Shown: in pieces, positions 1 through 5,836 of the stretch
Layout: every line of letters begins with the position of its first letter
How positions within the stretch are numbered: position 1 is the first letter of the stretch
Source of the DNA: Escherichia coli
GTDB taxonomy: Bacteria > Pseudomonadota > Gammaproteobacteria > Enterobacterales > Enterobacteriaceae
Length of the DNA: 64,000 nucleotides
NCBI RefSeq assembly: GCF_003334385.1
Contig: NZ_QOWN01000003.1
Reading direction: 5' to 3' (one strand)
Position numbers and translations under genes: made by a program
Notes under the pieces: model-generated
What the model was told of the DNA's origin: nothing
Database searches by the model: none
What the model saw: only the letters and a program-made list of their open reading frames with translations

Positions 1-325
1 AACGCGAGGCATCGTCTTAACGAGGCACCGAGGCGTCGCATTCTTCAGATGGTTCAACCCTTAAGTTAGCGCTTATGGGGTTTACCCACGCCTTTCCGTT
101 ATGCATGGGGCGGTCAAATATCTCGGCTACGCTGATGAACACAGTGCAGAGCCTGATCAGGTGATCCTTATCGAAGCGGGGCAGTTTGCGGTGTTCCCTC
201 CAGAAAAGTGGCACAACATTGAAGCCATGACTGACGATACTTATTTCAACATTGACTTCTTCGTGGCTCCTGAAGTCCTGATGGAAGGTGCGCAACAACG
301 GAAAGTCATTCATAACGGGAAATGA
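1..325 (+). CDS. yeaR: YeaR-like DUF1971 protein, 5'-truncated by the window edge
   Basis: Frame is open from the window start to the stop at 323-325; C-terminal peptide ...VKYLGYADEHSAEPDQVILIEAGQFAVFPPEKWHNIEAM...; followed 3 nt later by yoaG as in the yeaR-yoaG operon. Full-length start lies outside the window. Confidence 0.65.
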
Positions 326-328
326 ATC

Positions 329-511
329 ATGGGCAAAGCAACGTATACCGTGACCGTCACCAATAACAGCAATGGCGTTTCTGTCGATTATGAAACAGAG
401 ACGCCGATGACTTTGCTGGTGCCAGAAGTGGCGGCTGAAGTGATAAAAGATCTGGTGAATACCGTACGTTCTTATGACACGGAAAACGAACATGATGTTT
501 GTGGTTGGTAA
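329..511 (+). CDS. yoaG: small protein YoaG (60 aa)
   Basis: 60-aa ORF directly downstream of yeaR on the same strand; size and position match yoaG. Confidence 0.75.
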   Translation: MGKATYTVTVTNNSNGVSVDYETETPMTLLVPEVAAEVIKDLVNTVRSYDTENEHDVCGW

Positions 512-658
512 TTATCACTGATCGTTGATGGCGCAATTTCTGCGCCATCGCAAAAAAAACCTCCGTGATGCTCGTCACAAATCTTGCCCTCCCGATGTTG
601 TGCTATGCTTTTTATCAGCGACTAACCCGCTAATGCAAAACAGATAAGTGAGGAAACA

Positions 659-907
659 ATGGGCATTCTGTCATGGATTATTTTTGGGCTTATTGCCGGT
701 ATTCTGGCGAAGTGGATCATGCCAGGTAAAGATGGAGGTGGATTCTTTATGACTATCCTGCTGGGGATAGTCGGTGCCGTAGTCGGCGGATGGATCAGCA
801 CGCTGTTTGGCTTTGGTAAAGTCGATGGCTTCAATTTTGGCAGCTTCGTGGTTGCCGTTATTGGTGCGATTGTCGTGCTATTTATCTACAGGAAGATTAA
901 AAGTTAA
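659..907 (+). CDS. yeaQ: GlsB/YeaQ/YmgE-family small membrane protein (82 aa)
   Basis: 82-aa ORF, glycine-rich and hydrophobic (MGILSWIIFGLIAGILAKWIMPGKDGGG...); correct synteny. Confidence 0.85.
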   Translation: MGILSWIIFGLIAGILAKWIMPGKDGGGFFMTILLGIVGAVVGGWISTLFGFGKVDGFNFGSFVVAVIGAIVVLFIYRKIKS

Positions 908-921
908 CGCTTAAATTGCAC

Positions 922-955
922 AAAGGCTGCACACAGGCAGCCTTTGCTATTTTTT
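922..955 (+). terminator. rho-independent terminator downstream of yeaQ
   Basis: Stem aaaggctgc (922-930) / gcagccttt (937-945), 6-nt loop, then T-run 949-955. Confidence 0.5.
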
Positions 956-965
956 AGAGGTGACG

Positions 966-1040
966 TTACCACCATCCCAGCTCAGTGCCGAGTACGACAA
1001 TAATCGCCACACCCATCATAATAATCGTTGTTTTTTTCAT
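966..1040 (-). CDS. yoaJ: small hydrophobic protein YoaJ (24 aa)
   Basis: Hand-translated minus-strand ORF ATG(1040)..TAA(966): MKKTTIIMMGVAIIVVLGTELGWW; below the ORF-track cutoff; position between yeaQ and yeaP matches the known small-protein gene. Confidence 0.5.
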   Translation of the reverse strand: MKKTTIIMMGVAIIVVLGTELGWW

Positions 1041-1042
1041 CT

Positions 1043-1141
1043 TTATGCTCCCGGGGCAGCATAGCCGCCAATAAAAAACCATGCTAAAAATACGACCGCT
1101 GTAATGAAGATTACAACCGGAAAAATAATACCGATTCGCAT
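1043..1141 (-). CDS. yoaK: small hydrophobic protein YoaK (32 aa)
   Basis: Hand-translated minus-strand ORF ATG(1141)..TAA(1043): MRIGIIFPVVIFITAVVFLAWFFIGGYAAPGA; single predicted TM helix; adjacent to yoaJ. Confidence 0.5.
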   Translation of the reverse strand: MRIGIIFPVVIFITAVVFLAWFFIGGYAAPGA

Positions 1142-1173
1142 GTTATCACCAATCAAAAGGATGTGAATACGCC

Positions 1174-2199
1174 TCAGGAATGTAGCGCTGGATGCGTGAC
1201 AAAAGGTGTTTTCTGTTTGTGTTTTTTCTCCTGATACATCGCAATATCGGCAGCATGCAGGGCACTGTCTGCATCGGTTGTTTCAGGATCGACTTCTACT
1301 ATGCCAAGACTGGCACCGGGATAATACAAATCAACATCACCTAAGTGATATTCTCCACGTATTTGCTGCTGAATGCGTTCTCGCAGCGACGAAATATCCG
1401 CATTCTCGTTGTTTAGTGAAACAACTAAAAACTCATCACTGCCGAGACGACCAATAACTTCGCCATTTTGCTGGAGCGTATTAAGGCGCTCGCCAACCTG
1501 AATGAGAAACAGATCGCCACTATTATGACCAAAACGATCATTGATTAATTTGAAGTTATCCAGATCGATAAACGCGATCATTATCTTATGGTTAAGATGC
1601 CGGGCGAGGGAAAACAGTGTCGTCAGATTTTCAAAAATCGCCCGCCGATTCGGTAGCCCGGTTAACGAGTCGGTATACGATTGCGCAATCAGCGCAGCAT
1701 TGGCTTCGCGCAGCTGTTCAACCAGTGCCTCTTTTTGAATATATTGTGCAATCAGTCCGGCGAATAACTGTAAAACCTGTTCCGCGCGTTCACTCCACTG
1801 GCGCTTCTCACTGCTGGCGGCGCAAAGCGTGCCATAGAATGATCCATCCGGTAAGTGAATTGGCGTGCTCAGAAATGTGGTGATGCCAAGATTGCGTGCC
1901 GCAATACAGTCACCCCAACGGTCGGGGACTTCATCGCTGAAAAAGCAGTTTTCATCAATGGCGCGTTTGCATAACGAGTAATCCCACGAGACGGTAAAAT
2001 TCTCCGGGATGTACATTTTCTGGCTGTTACGGGCAAACATAATATGCTGCAGGCGCGCTTCGACATCCACTTTGGTCAGGTAGGTTGATTCCATATCAGT
2101 GACCATTTCCAGCATCTCCAGAAGCTGTCGGACCAGACTTTCCAGTGACTGTTCTTTGGCAAGGGATTGCGAGACGCGGGCGATAATCTGATCTGACAC
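1174..2199 (-). CDS. yeaP: GAF-GGDEF diguanylate cyclase (DgcP/YeaP)
   Basis: ORF with GGDEF-domain signature (...GHNSGDLFLIQVGERL...GRLGSDEF...); longest ORF extends to 2328, but the GTG at 2199 gives the 341-aa product (MSDQIIARVSQ...) expected for YeaP. Confidence 0.8.
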   Translation of the reverse strand: MSDQIIARVSQSLAKEQSLESLVRQLLEMLEMVTDMESTYLTKVDVEARLQHIMFARNSQKMYIPENFTVSWDYSLCKRAIDENCFFSDEVPDRWGDCIAARNLGITTFLSTPIHLPDGSFYGTLCAASSEKRQWSERAEQVLQLFAGLIAQYIQKEALVEQLREANAALIAQSYTDSLTGLPNRRAIFENLTTLFSLARHLNHKIMIAFIDLDNFKLINDRFGHNSGDLFLIQVGERLNTLQQNGEVIGRLGSDEFLVVSLNNENADISSLRERIQQQIRGEYHLGDVDLYYPGASLGIVEVDPETTDADSALHAADIAMYQEKKHKQKTPFVTHPALHS

Positions 2200-2381
2200 G
2201 GAACAACTCCAGGATACGGCGGGTAAATGCTGATTATTTAATCTTTGCAGGCATGATAAAACATCATCAACAAAGATGAAACAAGACGTAATATGTTTTG
2301 AGTGAATGTAATAAAAATAGTGCTGCAAAACAAAACGATACCGCGATACTCTAATCTTGGATAAATATGTGAGATCAATAA

Positions 2382-2636
2382 ATGAAAATTATCAGTTTTG
2401 TTCTGCCTTGCTTGCTGGTCCTGGCTGGTTGTTCAACCCCTTCTCAGCCAGAAGCACCTAAACCGCCGCAGATTGGTATGGCAAATCCGGCGTCGGTCTA
2501 TTGCCAGCAGAAGGGCGGGACGCTCATTCCAGTGCAGACAGCGCAAGGGGTCAGCAACAATTGCAAATTACCGGGCGGTGAAACGATTGATGAATGGGCA
2601 TTGTGGCGGCGTGACCATCCGGCTGGTGAAAAATAA
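2382..2636 (+). CDS. yoaF: lipoprotein YoaF (DUF333), 84 aa
   Basis: Signal peptide with lipobox LLVLAGC; 84-aa ORF; synteny. Confidence 0.8.
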   Translation: MKIISFVLPCLLVLAGCSTPSQPEAPKPPQIGMANPASVYCQQKGGTLIPVQTAQGVSNNCKLPGGETIDEWALWRRDHPAGEK

Positions 2637-2657
2637 CCGCCGGATGCTGTACTAAAA

Positions 2658-3005
2658 TCACAAGCTACGTAGCCAGTCGGCCAGCACCAGCGCATGGTTC
2701 TGCGTGGTGTTTTTTGCTGAGTAGAGCAGGGTCAGCGGCTGTTTTTTGGCGATGTCCGCCAGCCGCTTTCCTTCTTGCTCGTGTTGCGCCAGTTCTGCAA
2801 GATATTGCTCGCGAAAGGTTGCATAATCGACGACTTCGCCGTGAAAGGCTTTGCGCAGTTCCGTTGACGGCGTGATTTCTTTATCCCACTCATCAAGGGC
2901 TAAATCGGTTTTTTTGATACCGCGCGGCCAGAGGCGGTCGACCAGTATGCGATAACCATCGCTCTGTTCAGCCGGATCATAAACGCGTTTGCACTGAATA
3001 TTCAT
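2658..3005 (-). CDS. yeaO: DUF488-family protein YeaO (115 aa)
   Basis: ORF 2658..3026; internal ATG at 3005 gives the 115-aa product MNIQCKRVYDPAEQSDGYRILVDRLWPRG... Confidence 0.8.
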   Translation of the reverse strand: MNIQCKRVYDPAEQSDGYRILVDRLWPRGIKKTDLALDEWDKEITPSTELRKAFHGEVVDYATFREQYLAELAQHEQEGKRLADIAKKQPLTLLYSAKNTTQNHALVLADWLRSL

Positions 3006-3059
3006 CGTGTTTGTTCTCCCTTTCACGCATGATTTGTTACGTCACTATAGCACCGGATA

Positions 3060-4241
3060 TTAGCGAATTTCTTTGTCTCTCCCGGCGCAAAGTCCGAAAA
3101 TCGCCATCAGTAGTGAAAGTATGGCAACACCCATAAGTGGTACAGACCAGTTACCGTTAGCATCGTGTATTTTACCCATCAGCGGCGGCCCACAGGCTGC
3201 CAACAAATACCCGACGGATTGTGCCATCCCCGAGAGTGCCGCCGCCTGATGCGCAGAACTAGCCCGCAGACCAATGAACGTCAACCCCAGTATCATTGTT
3301 GCGCCGGAACCAAAACCGAAAAGCAGAGTCCAGGTGATCGCGTGCGCTGGCATAAAGCAGAGCCCAACCGCGCCCACTGCGCACATCAAGGCAACGAACG
3401 CTGCAATACCACGCTGATCTTTCACATGATGTAAGAAAAGTGGGATCAGCAAACCGGGTGCTGCTGTGGCTAGTTGCAGCAAACCATGCAGTGAACCCGC
3501 CTGTGCTTCGCTATAGCCGTGACTGATGAGGATCGCCGGAAGCCAGCCAATAATCACGTAATAGACCAGTGAGTTGATCCCAAGAAACAATGTGACCTGC
3601 CAGGCAAGCGGCGAACGCCAGATACCCCGAGTATGTAAGGCGCGCGAGGTACTCAAATTTGCATGTTGTTGACTTCGCCACTGTGGCAGCCATAAAAAAA
3701 GAGCCAGCAGAGGAAAACACATCAGCATGAGCAACGCGCCTTGCCAGCCAAAACCGTTCAAAGCCAGCGGCACGACCATAGCCGATCCCAGTGCCGCTGC
3801 AGCTCCCATTGTCAGGGAATATGCGCCGGTAAGTCTGGCGACGGAATGAGGGAAATCGCGTTTAATTAATCCTGGCAGTAAGACATTGCCTAATGCAATC
3901 CCACCGCTAATGACCGCTGTACCGCCAAATAATAAGTAAGGCGAAGGGAGAGAGCGAATTGCGATACCAGCACAGATCAAAAGTAACGCGGCAAACAGGC
4001 TACGTTCCATACCAAAACGTCGCGCTACCGGGGCAGCCAAAGGTGAGATTAGCGCAAAGGCCAATAATGGCAGGGTGGTCAATAAGCCGGTTTGCGCTGT
4101 CGTCAGCGAGTAAGCGGAACGAATCGTATCCAGTAACGGTGCTGCGCCGGTAAAGGTGACGCGTAATGTTGTGGCAATCATCAGAATGCCAGCGATAAGG
4201 ACAATCCTGTTTTTGCCGCTTAATGAAGTTGAACAGGTCAT
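3060..4241 (-). CDS. yeaN: MFS transporter YeaN/NimT (2-nitroimidazole exporter)
   Basis: 393-aa polytopic membrane ORF; divergent from the AraC-type regulator yeaM. Confidence 0.85.
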   Translation of the reverse strand: MTCSTSLSGKNRIVLIAGILMIATTLRVTFTGAAPLLDTIRSAYSLTTAQTGLLTTLPLLAFALISPLAAPVARRFGMERSLFAALLLICAGIAIRSLPSPYLLFGGTAVISGGIALGNVLLPGLIKRDFPHSVARLTGAYSLTMGAAAALGSAMVVPLALNGFGWQGALLMLMCFPLLALFLWLPQWRSQQHANLSTSRALHTRGIWRSPLAWQVTLFLGINSLVYYVIIGWLPAILISHGYSEAQAGSLHGLLQLATAAPGLLIPLFLHHVKDQRGIAAFVALMCAVGAVGLCFMPAHAITWTLLFGFGSGATMILGLTFIGLRASSAHQAAALSGMAQSVGYLLAACGPPLMGKIHDANGNWSVPLMGVAILSLLMAIFGLCAGRDKEIR

Positions 4242-4337
4242 ATGCTTCTCATTGTTACAAACGAGGCTGTACCTTACCGTTTTTATTGTTATGTTGAATC
4301 AAGCTAAAATGACAAATTATCGCTAAGTTCGGACAAA

Positions 4338-5159
4338 ATGATGCACAGGTTGAATCTCAATGGCTATGAACCCGACCGACACCATGAAGCCGCGGTCGCA
4401 TTTTGTATTCACGCCGGAACGGATGAGTTAACCAGTCCTGTACATCAGCACCGCAAAGGACAGCTGATACTGGCGCTACATGGTGCAATTACCTGTACGG
4501 TGGAAAATGCTTTGTGGATGGTGCCGCCACAATATGCGGTTTGGATACCGGGCGGGGTGGAACATAGCAATCAAGTAACAGCTAATGCTGAACTCTGTTT
4601 TCTGTTTATCGAACCCAGCGCAGTGACAATGCCGACAACATGTTGCACATTGAAAATATCGCCCTTATGCCGGGAATTAATTTTAACCCTGGCAAACAGG
4701 ACGACGACTCAGCGTGCTGAGCCAATGACCCGCAGATTAATTCAGGTCCTGTTTGATGAACTCCCTCAGCAGCCACAACAACAGCTGCACCTGCCCGTTT
4801 CTTCTCATCCTAAAATCCGCACGATGGTGGAGATGATGGCGAAAGGGCCTGTCGAGTGGGGGGCATTGGGGCAATGGGCTGGCTTTTTTGCGATGAGTGA
4901 ACGCAATCTTGCCCGACTGATAGTAAAAGAGACGGGGTTGAGTTTTCGCCAGTGGCGTCAGCAGTTACAGCTGATTATGGCGCTTCAGGGATTAGTGAAA
5001 GGCGATACTGTACAGAAAGTTGCTCATACGCTGGGGTATGATTCAACAACGGCCTTTATTACTATGTTTAAGAAAGGCCTGGGGCAAACGCCAGGCCGAT
5101 ATATTGCGAGATTAACTACTGTTTCCCCACAATCAGCGAAACCAGACCCGCGGCAATAA
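4338..5159 (+). CDS. yeaM: AraC-family transcriptional regulator YeaM/NimR
   Basis: 273-aa ORF with C-terminal AraC-type HTH (...[27 protein letters not shown]...); divergent from yeaN. Confidence 0.85.
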
Positions 5160-5731: not shown

Positions 5732-5836
5732 ATGAACGATCAAATGTTTGTCGAGACACTGATTATCACGTCATCGTTTTTTGCCATTGCTGTTGTACTG
5801 GTTTTGTCCGTTCTTCTTATCGAACGGACCGGCTAG
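5732..5836 (+). CDS. yoaI: small membrane protein YoaI (34 aa)
   Basis: Hand-translated ORF ATG 5732..TAG 5834-5836: [34 protein letters not shown]; GGGGG Shine-Dalgarno-like run at 5721-5725; sits between yeaL and yeaK. Confidence 0.5.

Follow-up and report, generated by a model that had tools for sequence, protein, structure and literature searches.

The interval between the genes yeaQ and yeaP on a 64,000-nucleotide stretch of Escherichia coli DNA (NCBI RefSeq assembly GCF_003334385.1, contig NZ_QOWN01000003.1), hereafter called the window, contains two very short open reading frames (ORFs) in tandem on the minus strand. Are these frames genes, are their products made together, and what might a pair of such small membrane proteins do?

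Identity and Gene Layout

The first of the two frames, yoaK, lies at 1043..1141 on the minus strand and runs in a six-frame ORF list from an ATG at 1141 to a TAA at 1043-1045, encoding a peptide of 32 aa, MRIGIIFPVVIFITAVVFLAWFFIGGYAAPGA. The second, yoaJ, at 966..1040 on the same strand, starts with an ATG at 1040, ends with a TAA at 966-968 and encodes 24 aa, MKKTTIIMMGVAIIVVLGTELGWW. They are separated by the two nucleotides AG at 1041-1042. Read on the minus strand, the interval 890..1260 shows ...GGTGATAAC ATG CGA ATC GGT ... CCG GGA GCA TAA AG for the yoaK part, followed by ATG AAA AAA ACA ACG ... GGA TGG TGG TAA for yoaJ and then by a G+C-rich hairpin. The flanking genes are yeaQ (659..907, plus strand) and dgcP, also known as yeaP (1174..2199, minus strand). 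Both frames, the encoded peptides and the 2-nt spacing are, to the letter, those that a first-pass annotation of the window had given. It had also named the frames yoaJ and yoaK, and here PGAP coordinates, NCBIfam equivalogs and Table S1 of PMC10470546 all agree with it.

The assignment draws on several resources. A colinear RefSeq/PGAP record carries coding sequences at 966..1040 and 1043..1141, the same coordinates as in the window. The segment 600..1300 was matched at an identity of at least 95% in 5419 of 5426 complete E. coli genomes, and 950..1175 is 100% identical to a K-12 genome, among others; in all 39 sampled full-length E. coli matches, the two frames are annotated as "yoaK: YoaK family small membrane protein" and "yoaJ: protein YoaJ." YoaK scores 69.1 bits against the NCBIfam equivalog NF033821 (cut-off 32), with residues 1-32 aligned to model positions 1-32, and YoaJ scores 60.4 bits against the equivalog NF011343, or PRK14760 (cut-off 54), with residues 1-24 on model positions 1-24. 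YoaK orthologues of at least 90% identity carry a precomputed match to the Pfam family PF28021:YoaK. A Pfam-A profile search with YoaK returned only noise, the searched copy of Pfam-A being one without PF28021, and a sequence search of the PDB found no solved structure with the YoaK or YoaJ sequence. Both peptides are letter-identical to the YoaJ and YoaK listed in Table S1 of PMC10470546.

Compared with E. coli K-12, the locus is the same in every respect considered: DNA, peptides and neighbours are all equal. The K-12 genes, at around 1.873 Mb of that genome, have the identifiers b4676 (yoaK) and b4675 (yoaJ), and both were reportedly first described by Hemm and coworkers in 2008 (Mol Microbiol 70:1487). 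The interval thus holds the catalogued E. coli genes yoaK and yoaJ, for which entries already exist in RefSeq, NCBIfam, Pfam and UniProt, besides several papers. For E. coli, no new biology is established here, as both genes were annotated and tagged years ago.

Visibility of Short Frames

The first-pass annotation had further pointed out that the two genes are invisible in a conventional ORF table, and this is borne out: no ORF of at least 60 aa overlaps 908..1173, so a table with a 60-aa threshold misses both yoaK and yoaJ. With a threshold of 20 aa, both appear in extended form, as 966..1082 (38 aa, yoaJ) and 1043..1156 (37 aa, yoaK), because such a list begins each frame with the earliest start codon that follows a stop. 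The in-frame upstream ATG is missing in 74-75 of 82 related loci. Judged by this comparison, it is the internal ATGs of the annotation that are conserved as starts, and the longer extensions are not. Short ORFs are common by chance, and ORFs alone prove nothing: 63 ORFs of 20-40 aa overlap the first 3 kb of the window. The yoaK-yoaJ pair can nevertheless serve as a positive control, showing that a 60-aa cut-off hides real genes and that such genes are recognizable from the sequence alone. A further gene of fewer than 60 codons that such a cut-off hides, yoaI, is located at 5732..5836 in the same window.

Conservation and Coding Capacity

The abundance of chance ORFs raises the alternative that the two frames are accidental features of a non-coding spacer, or that only one of them is a gene, yoaJ for example being an artefact confined to Escherichia. 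Database look-ups lend this alternative some substance. In an exact-sequence look-up, YoaK belongs to a cluster of 141 members at 90% identity, with representatives in Escherichia, Salmonella, Citrobacter and Enterobacter, whereas YoaJ is the only member of its own 90%-identity cluster. Moreover, several assemblies of Salmonella, Enterobacter and Citrobacter contain no gene call for yoaJ. Yet, an intact ORF of 24 aa directly follows yoaK on all examined Salmonella, Enterobacter and Citrobacter contigs, whether or not a gene was called there.

For a wider sample, one genome per bacterial species was scanned with the back-translated YoaK motif FL.WF..GGYA. The scan gave 115 loci, from which approximately seven chance matches in unrelated bacteria were discarded; together with loci collected earlier and the window itself, a YoaK-like ORF was present in 112 loci. 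It is followed by a yoaJ of exactly 24 aa in 82 of these 112, which belong to 17 named genera of the Enterobacteriaceae, including Citrobacter, Enterobacter, Escherichia, Huaxiibacter, Klebsiella, Kluyvera, Leclercia, Lelliottia, Pseudenterobacter, Pseudocitrobacter, Raoultella, Salmonella, Silvania, Trabulsiella and Yokenella, among others. When truncated loci are set aside, 82 of 84 yoaK loci of the paired type possess an intact 24-aa yoaJ. The two exceptions are frameshifts, one in C. sedlakii in an A-run at the 5' end of yoaJ and one in a single C. amalonaticus assembly at the 3' end of yoaK. Five more YoaK loci end just past the yoaJ start, at the edge of the fetched DNA.

The substitution pattern has the signature of protein-coding DNA. 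Entropy at third codon positions is 1.29 in yoaK and 1.27 in yoaJ, as opposed to 0.14 and 0.28, respectively, at second positions. The pooled Nei-Gojobori dN/dS of yoaK is 0.057; as the search pattern had fixed 11 of its codons, this value is partly biased, and it becomes 0.079 when these codons are omitted. For yoaJ, the corresponding in-frame value is 0.149. In the +1 and +2 frames, dN/dS is 1.8 and 3.4 for yoaK and 1.1 and 2.9 for yoaJ. Synonymous codons of both genes change freely, which gives no sign of a second, overlapping constraint. The 82 pairs include 78 distinct yoaJ nucleotide sequences and, hence, are not misassembled copies of a single sequence. The first-pass annotation had proposed conservation of the frames in related genomes as a check, and both frames are indeed kept, under purifying selection, in the 82 loci.

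The conservation of the frames across species, together with the substitution pattern, indicates that yoaK and yoaJ are coding and more than chance ORFs. The chance-ORF alternative is refuted by these two tests and retains a negligible probability: yoaJ stays intact in 17 named genera despite five types of junction with yoaK (see below), its dN/dS is far lower in frame than out of frame, and tagged versions of the proteins have been detected according to the literature. The missing yoaJ calls have an explanation as well. YoaJ orthologues of the Salmonella, Enterobacter, Kluyvera and Raoultella type score 41-52 bits and, therefore, fall below the 54-bit cut-off of NF011343, which is why yoaJ is often left unannotated outside Escherichia. 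These scores agree with the absence of gene calls in several Salmonella, Enterobacter and Citrobacter assemblies. That yoaJ is kept far beyond Escherichia as the partner of yoaK may be of modest use to annotators and to those working on microproteins.

Features of the Peptides

Both peptides contain one strongly hydrophobic stretch, with best 15-residue Kyte-Doolittle means of 3.10 and 2.52, and their basic residues are exclusively N-terminal (R2 in YoaK; K2 and K3 in YoaJ). This supports the single transmembrane (TM) helix that the first-pass annotation had predicted for each of them. The orientation of YoaK calls for a refinement, as it has been reported as "dual" rather than simply with the N terminus inside and the C terminus outside (N-in/C-out).

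YoaK of the window conforms to the pattern M-[RK]-x-G-x-x-F-P ... F-L-x-W-F-x-x-G-G-Y-A-x-P and has all the residues that are invariant among 45 distinct orthologous peptides, although the invariance of FL.WF..GGYA among these peptides was given by construction, since this segment doubled as the search pattern. YoaJ has the N-terminal M-[RK]-K-[TS]-T and the C-terminal G-x-x-x-G-W-W that characterize its orthologues and is encoded by a 24-aa ORF directly after yoaK. Invariant residues in YoaJ are M1, K3, T5, A12, G18, G22 and W24, and W23 is found in 59 of 60 distinct peptides.

The Junction Between yoaK and yoaJ

At the junction in the window (1041..1045, minus strand), the TAA of yoaK (1043-1045) is followed by AG (1041-1042) and then by the ATG of yoaJ (1038-1040). 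A Shine-Dalgarno (SD) sequence for yoaJ, GGGAG, is found at 1048..1052 on the minus strand, inside the yoaK codons for Pro30-Gly31-Ala32, and one for yoaK, GGTGAT, at 1145..1150 on the same strand, 4 nt 5' of the yoaK ATG. The calculated duplex of the yoaJ site with the anti-SD sequence has an energy of -6.6 kcal/mol in the window and a mean of -7.65 kcal/mol over 59 distinct upstream sequences. For yoaK, the mean is -6.0 kcal/mol, and the control, consisting of random 17-mers from the same loci, gave -2.4 kcal/mol. A G is present at position -9 of yoaK in 62 of 63 distinct upstream sequences.

The distance between the two genes is tightly constrained, with an offset within -4 to +3 nt in all 82 loci, and the sequence that realizes it varies. 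An overlap of 4 nt (offset -4; ATGA or GTGA) is found in 12 loci, for example in Kluyvera and Pseudocitrobacter, and a 1-nt overlap (offset -1; TAATG or TGATG) in 11 loci, for example in Klebsiella, Raoultella and Trabulsiella. Stop and start codons are directly adjacent (offset 0; TAAATG, TAAGTG and similar) in 31 loci, including those of Enterobacter, Leclercia and Lelliottia. The 2-nt spacer (offset +2) of the window occurs in 23 loci, among them those of Escherichia, Salmonella and most Citrobacter, with the junctions TAAAGATG, TAACAATG and TAACGATG, and a 3-nt spacer (offset +3; TAAATCATG and similar) in five loci, as in the C. amalonaticus group. Thus, the relative frame of yoaK and yoaJ shifts between lineages, yet both frames stay open.

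From this geometry alone, translational coupling of the two genes may be inferred. Ribosomes that terminate on yoaK would re-initiate on yoaJ, and YoaK and YoaJ would, in consequence, be made together in a roughly fixed ratio.

Transcription Unit

The upstream cistron, dgcP (1174..2199, minus strand), encodes a diguanylate cyclase with GAF and GGDEF domains, and its stop codon lies 32 nt before the yoaK ATG. A terminator scan of the minus strand found no terminator-like site in the gap between the two genes (1142-1173). Downstream, the scan identified the G+C-rich hairpin at 921..946, between the convergent genes yeaQ and yoaJ, as an intrinsic terminator. It has a clear T-tract on the plus strand and a weaker U-tract for the yoaJ transcript; the RNA of the minus strand has a folding energy of -20.2 kcal/mol (z = -3.4 relative to shuffled sequences). 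An equivalent hairpin is located 3' of yoaJ in Salmonella, Enterobacter and Citrobacter. The expression of yeaP is said to be sigma-S dependent, a finding credited to Weber (2006) and Sommerfeldt (2009). For a promoter of yoaK-yoaJ itself, a consensus scan gave only a chance-level match that ends on the yoaK ATG. An RNA-seq-based operon database illustrates newly detected operons of three genes with yeaP-yoaK-yoaJ (PMC4620388). Hence, yoaK-yoaJ is the distal end of a dgcP(yeaP)-yoaK-yoaJ unit that stops at the hairpin at 921..946, which also terminates yeaQ. It appears almost certain that yoaK and yoaJ are two real genes that are co-transcribed behind dgcP, with translation of yoaJ probably coupled to that of yoaK, and that yield single-pass inner-membrane microproteins.

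Small hydrophobic peptides in E. coli include toxins of type I systems, such as Hok, Ldr, Ibs and TisB, the synthesis of which is silenced by an antisense RNA, and YoaK and/or YoaJ could be toxin-like peptides of this kind. They are similar to these toxins in size and hydrophobicity, Hok, Ldr and Ibs likewise being small peptides with a single TM segment, and Hok toxins are also degraded by RseP (PMC10470546). In addition, a sigma-70-like consensus scan gave a weak match antisense to yoaJ, at 994..1022. However, the scan found two promoter-like matches where 3.6 are expected from shuffled sequences, and an Rfam search of both strands of 1..5000 of the window at E <= 1 matched no family, the described toxin-antitoxin RNAs included. 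The gene arrangement also differs: yoaK-yoaJ is single-copy, syntenic, vertically inherited and located distally in an operon behind an enzyme gene, whereas type I toxin genes usually stand alone and in multiple copies. Furthermore, chromosomally tagged YoaK accumulates in stationary phase (10.1101/511675), and no toxicity was reported for over-produced tagged YoaJ and YoaK in a study in which HokB caused severe growth inhibition (PMC10470546). A role of YoaK or YoaJ as type I toxins is, therefore, highly improbable.

Linkage to dgcP

The operon structure could mean that YoaK and YoaJ serve DgcP, as dedicated accessory subunits that tether the enzyme to the membrane or modulate its activity and, in this way, localize the synthesis of c-di-GMP. 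Besides the co-transcription of the three genes in E. coli (PMC4620388), gene order speaks for such a role. Among the 69 loci with enough upstream sequence to be assessed, 58 have a dgcP orthologue with 52-91% identity that immediately precedes yoaK on its strand, mostly with a gap of 17-57 nt, and the order dgcP-yoaK-yoaJ is thus kept across many genera. The gene on the other side is less constant: the pair faces a convergent yeaQ downstream in Escherichia, Salmonella, Citrobacter, Enterobacter, Leclercia and Lelliottia but not in the group of Klebsiella, Raoultella, Kluyvera and Trabulsiella.

Against a dedicated accessory function, the pair is intact and under selection in the other 11 of the 69 assessable loci, where no intact dgcP is found. 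These are the loci of three Salmonella species or subspecies, of the C. amalonaticus/sedlakii group, of E. asburiae TN152 and of K. ascorbata, in which dgcP is truncated. T. guamensis also lacks dgcP; it was left out of the 69 as it offers too little upstream sequence. In C. amalonaticus, T. guamensis and E. asburiae TN152, short blastn matches revealed that remnants of the dgcP 3' end are still present ahead of yoaK, indicating that dgcP was deleted there rather than that the pair was inserted elsewhere. The spacer between yoaF and dgcP in E. coli and those between yoaF and yoaK in Salmonella, where it measures 196 nt, and in C. sedlakii were too diverged for their alignment to be read. As the pair is kept without intact dgcP, in those lineages, at least, it should have a role that is independent of DgcP. 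As far as gene order tells, yoaK-yoaJ travels with dgcP without depending on it, and it outlives the repeated loss of this gene. That YoaK and YoaJ are dedicated DgcP subunits is, thus, rather unlikely.

A more elaborate scheme is conceivable. YoaK and YoaJ could form an obligate, stoichiometrically co-translated heteromer that ancestrally links the soluble DgcP to the inner membrane and so makes c-di-GMP signalling local, and that has a second, DgcP-independent target for which it is kept under selection in Salmonella and Citrobacter after the loss of dgcP. The conserved order of the three genes and the junction from yoaK to yoaJ, always within -4 to +3 nt, would fit this scheme, which we consider quite unlikely.

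YoaK Without YoaJ

YoaK-type peptides also occur on their own. A solo subfamily is represented by 23 loci in Kosakonia, Pluralibacter, Phytobacter, Superficieibacter and other Enterobacteriaceae. It has the consensus MRIGIAFPILVFIVAVAFLAWF..GGYATPGS and still scores 67.9 bits on NF033821. Solo peptides resemble YoaK in belonging to the same NCBIfam family, in their length (31-34 aa) and in the motif FP...F...A..FL.WF..GGYA. In contrast to the paired genes, they are encoded at variable, non-syntenic loci that lack yoaJ, dgcP and yeaQ over 2.5 kb around them. Their neighbourhoods were inspected for a functional clue and proved heterogeneous. The existence of YoaK without YoaJ implies that peptides of this type need no YoaJ in principle, which complicates models of an obligate pair, such as the heteromer considered above.

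Together with the breadth and the coupling geometry of the pair, its survival after dgcP loss and the gap in the annotation of yoaJ, this subfamily is one of the small additions of the present analysis to what was known of these genes. Like the wide conservation of yoaJ, the solo subfamily and the persistence of the pair without dgcP may be of modest use to annotators and microprotein researchers.

Protein Evidence

YoaJ and YoaK are described in the literature as small membrane proteins. According to the entries on YoaJ in PMC4597795 and in Table S1 of PMC10470546, Fontaine et al. (2011) confirmed experimentally that it is integral to the membrane in the N-in/C-out orientation, and this orientation has been put to use in a periplasmic display tag. 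YoaK is predicted to be N-in/C-out, but its experimental record reads "dual" (Table S1 of PMC10470546). On immunoblots, chromosomally tagged YoaK is visible in stationary phase, with an expression in the lower range of the first-generation small proteins (10.1101/511675). The level of YoaJ is said to increase after treatment with diamide (Hemm 2010, as quoted in PMC12542507).

Both peptides were classified as "class II" substrates of RseP, since they were cut in vitro and, in some tag formats, in vivo, with results that were tag-dependent and inconsistent (PMC10470546). Co-immunoprecipitation of HA-MBP-YoaJ with RseP is the sole interaction on record (PMC4597795); beyond this, the literature reports no partner or phenotype for YoaK or YoaJ.

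Comparison With Known Small Subunits

YoaK and YoaJ could constitute a small membrane module of two helices that binds a larger envelope protein and modulates it in stationary phase or under stress and that may be turned over by RseP. The role of such a module would not be strictly DgcP-dependent, as the pair is kept where dgcP has been deleted. By analogy with AcrZ, MgtS, CydX and KdpF, there is an even chance that YoaK and YoaJ act in this manner, as a pair on a larger envelope protein.

NCBIfam and Pfam-A profile searches detected no sequence similarity of YoaK or YoaJ to any of these four proteins. They also differ in that CydX, KdpF, AcrZ and MgtS have known partner complexes whereas none has been reported for YoaK and YoaJ, and the neighbouring DgcP is a soluble enzyme that is dispensable for retention of the pair. 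The likeness lies in the overall design: CydX (encoded in cydABX), KdpF (in kdpFABC), AcrZ and MgtS are, like YoaK and YoaJ, inner-membrane proteins of fewer than 50 aa with a single TM segment and operon-linked genes, and CydX was screened alongside YoaK as a class II substrate of RseP (PMC10470546).

Conservation of the yoaK-yoaJ Pair

The small-protein genes yoaK and yoaJ do not depend on the presence of their upstream neighbor dgcP (yeaP) to persist. In several separate lineages, the pair is intact, and dgcP is missing or truncated. Among the genomic loci fetched around YoaK-like ORFs (L-numbers), this arrangement was found in Salmonella (L002, L036, and L091), the Citrobacter amalonaticus/sedlakii group (L008, L010, L045, L046, L067, and L108), E. 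asburiae TN152 (L056), T. guamensis (L088), and K. ascorbata (L044). C. amalonaticus, T. guamensis, and E. asburiae TN152 still carry short remnants derived from the 3' end of dgcP.

Intact yoaJ genes encoding 24 amino acids but lacking a gene call are present in Salmonella (L002 and L003, both at 3102-3176), Enterobacter (L004, L006, and L007, all at 3100-3174), and Citrobacter (L010, about 3100-3177). YoaJ peptides of the Salmonella, Enterobacter, Kluyvera, and Raoultella type score 41-52 bits against the NCBIfam YoaJ model NF011343. Since these scores are below the cut-off of the model, which is 54 bits, PGAP would leave such orthologs unnamed.

Disrupted versions of the pair were also encountered. 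In C. sedlakii NBRC 105722, yoaJ is disrupted at its 5' A-run, which has A6 in place of A7 (L046, about 3414-3440), and in C. amalonaticus AUH_CA_2023_1 the yoaK frame continues through yoaJ (L108, 2033-2219). The frameshift variants among the database proteins are P0017, P0018, and P0031, of which P0018 is an in-frame YoaK-YoaJ fusion. These variants may represent sequencing errors in homopolymers or, alternatively, real pseudogenes and fusions.

A Solitary YoaK Subfamily

A second YoaK subfamily, recognizable by the sequence MRIGIAFPILVFIVAVAFLAWF..GGYATPGS, is represented in Kosakonia, Pluralibacter, Phytobacter, Superficieibacter, and related bacteria (L012, L016, L021, L025, L035, L050, L055, L058, L059, L062-L064, L074, L076, L080, L082, L084, L087, L090, L095, L117, L118, L120, and L121). 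Its genes are solitary and located at variable loci, with no yoaJ, dgcP, or yeaQ close by. One of these loci, L064, lies on a contig labeled Chryseobacterium sp. 18061 (CACSKA010000001.1), yet its solo YoaK is of the Enterobacteriaceae type. Two other loci, L121 from "Citrobacter sp. 18056" and L090 from "Enterobacteriaceae bacterium 89", encode the same peptide, and the Chryseobacterium record is probably mislabeled or contaminated.

Start Codons and Neighboring Genes

In the window, the mechanical ORF list lengthens yoaJ and yoaK to 38 and 37 amino acids, respectively, by using earlier start codons (966-1082 and 1043-1156, both on the minus strand). The N-terminal additions of these longer versions are not conserved. 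The "G-D" preceding YoaK in the extended ORF is the Shine-Dalgarno sequence GGTGAT read as codons.

The annotated membrane protein gene yoaI (5732-5836, plus strand), encoding 34 amino acids, is likewise missed at the 60-amino-acid ORF threshold. In the homologous genome match H1, E. coli WCHEC050613 (NZ_CP019213.3, 2072659-2074136), yeaQ, which adjoins yoaJ, is interrupted by an IS1 element; the annotation lists an IS1 transposase and two yeaQ fragments, the counterpart of which is the yeaQ gene at 659-907 in the window.
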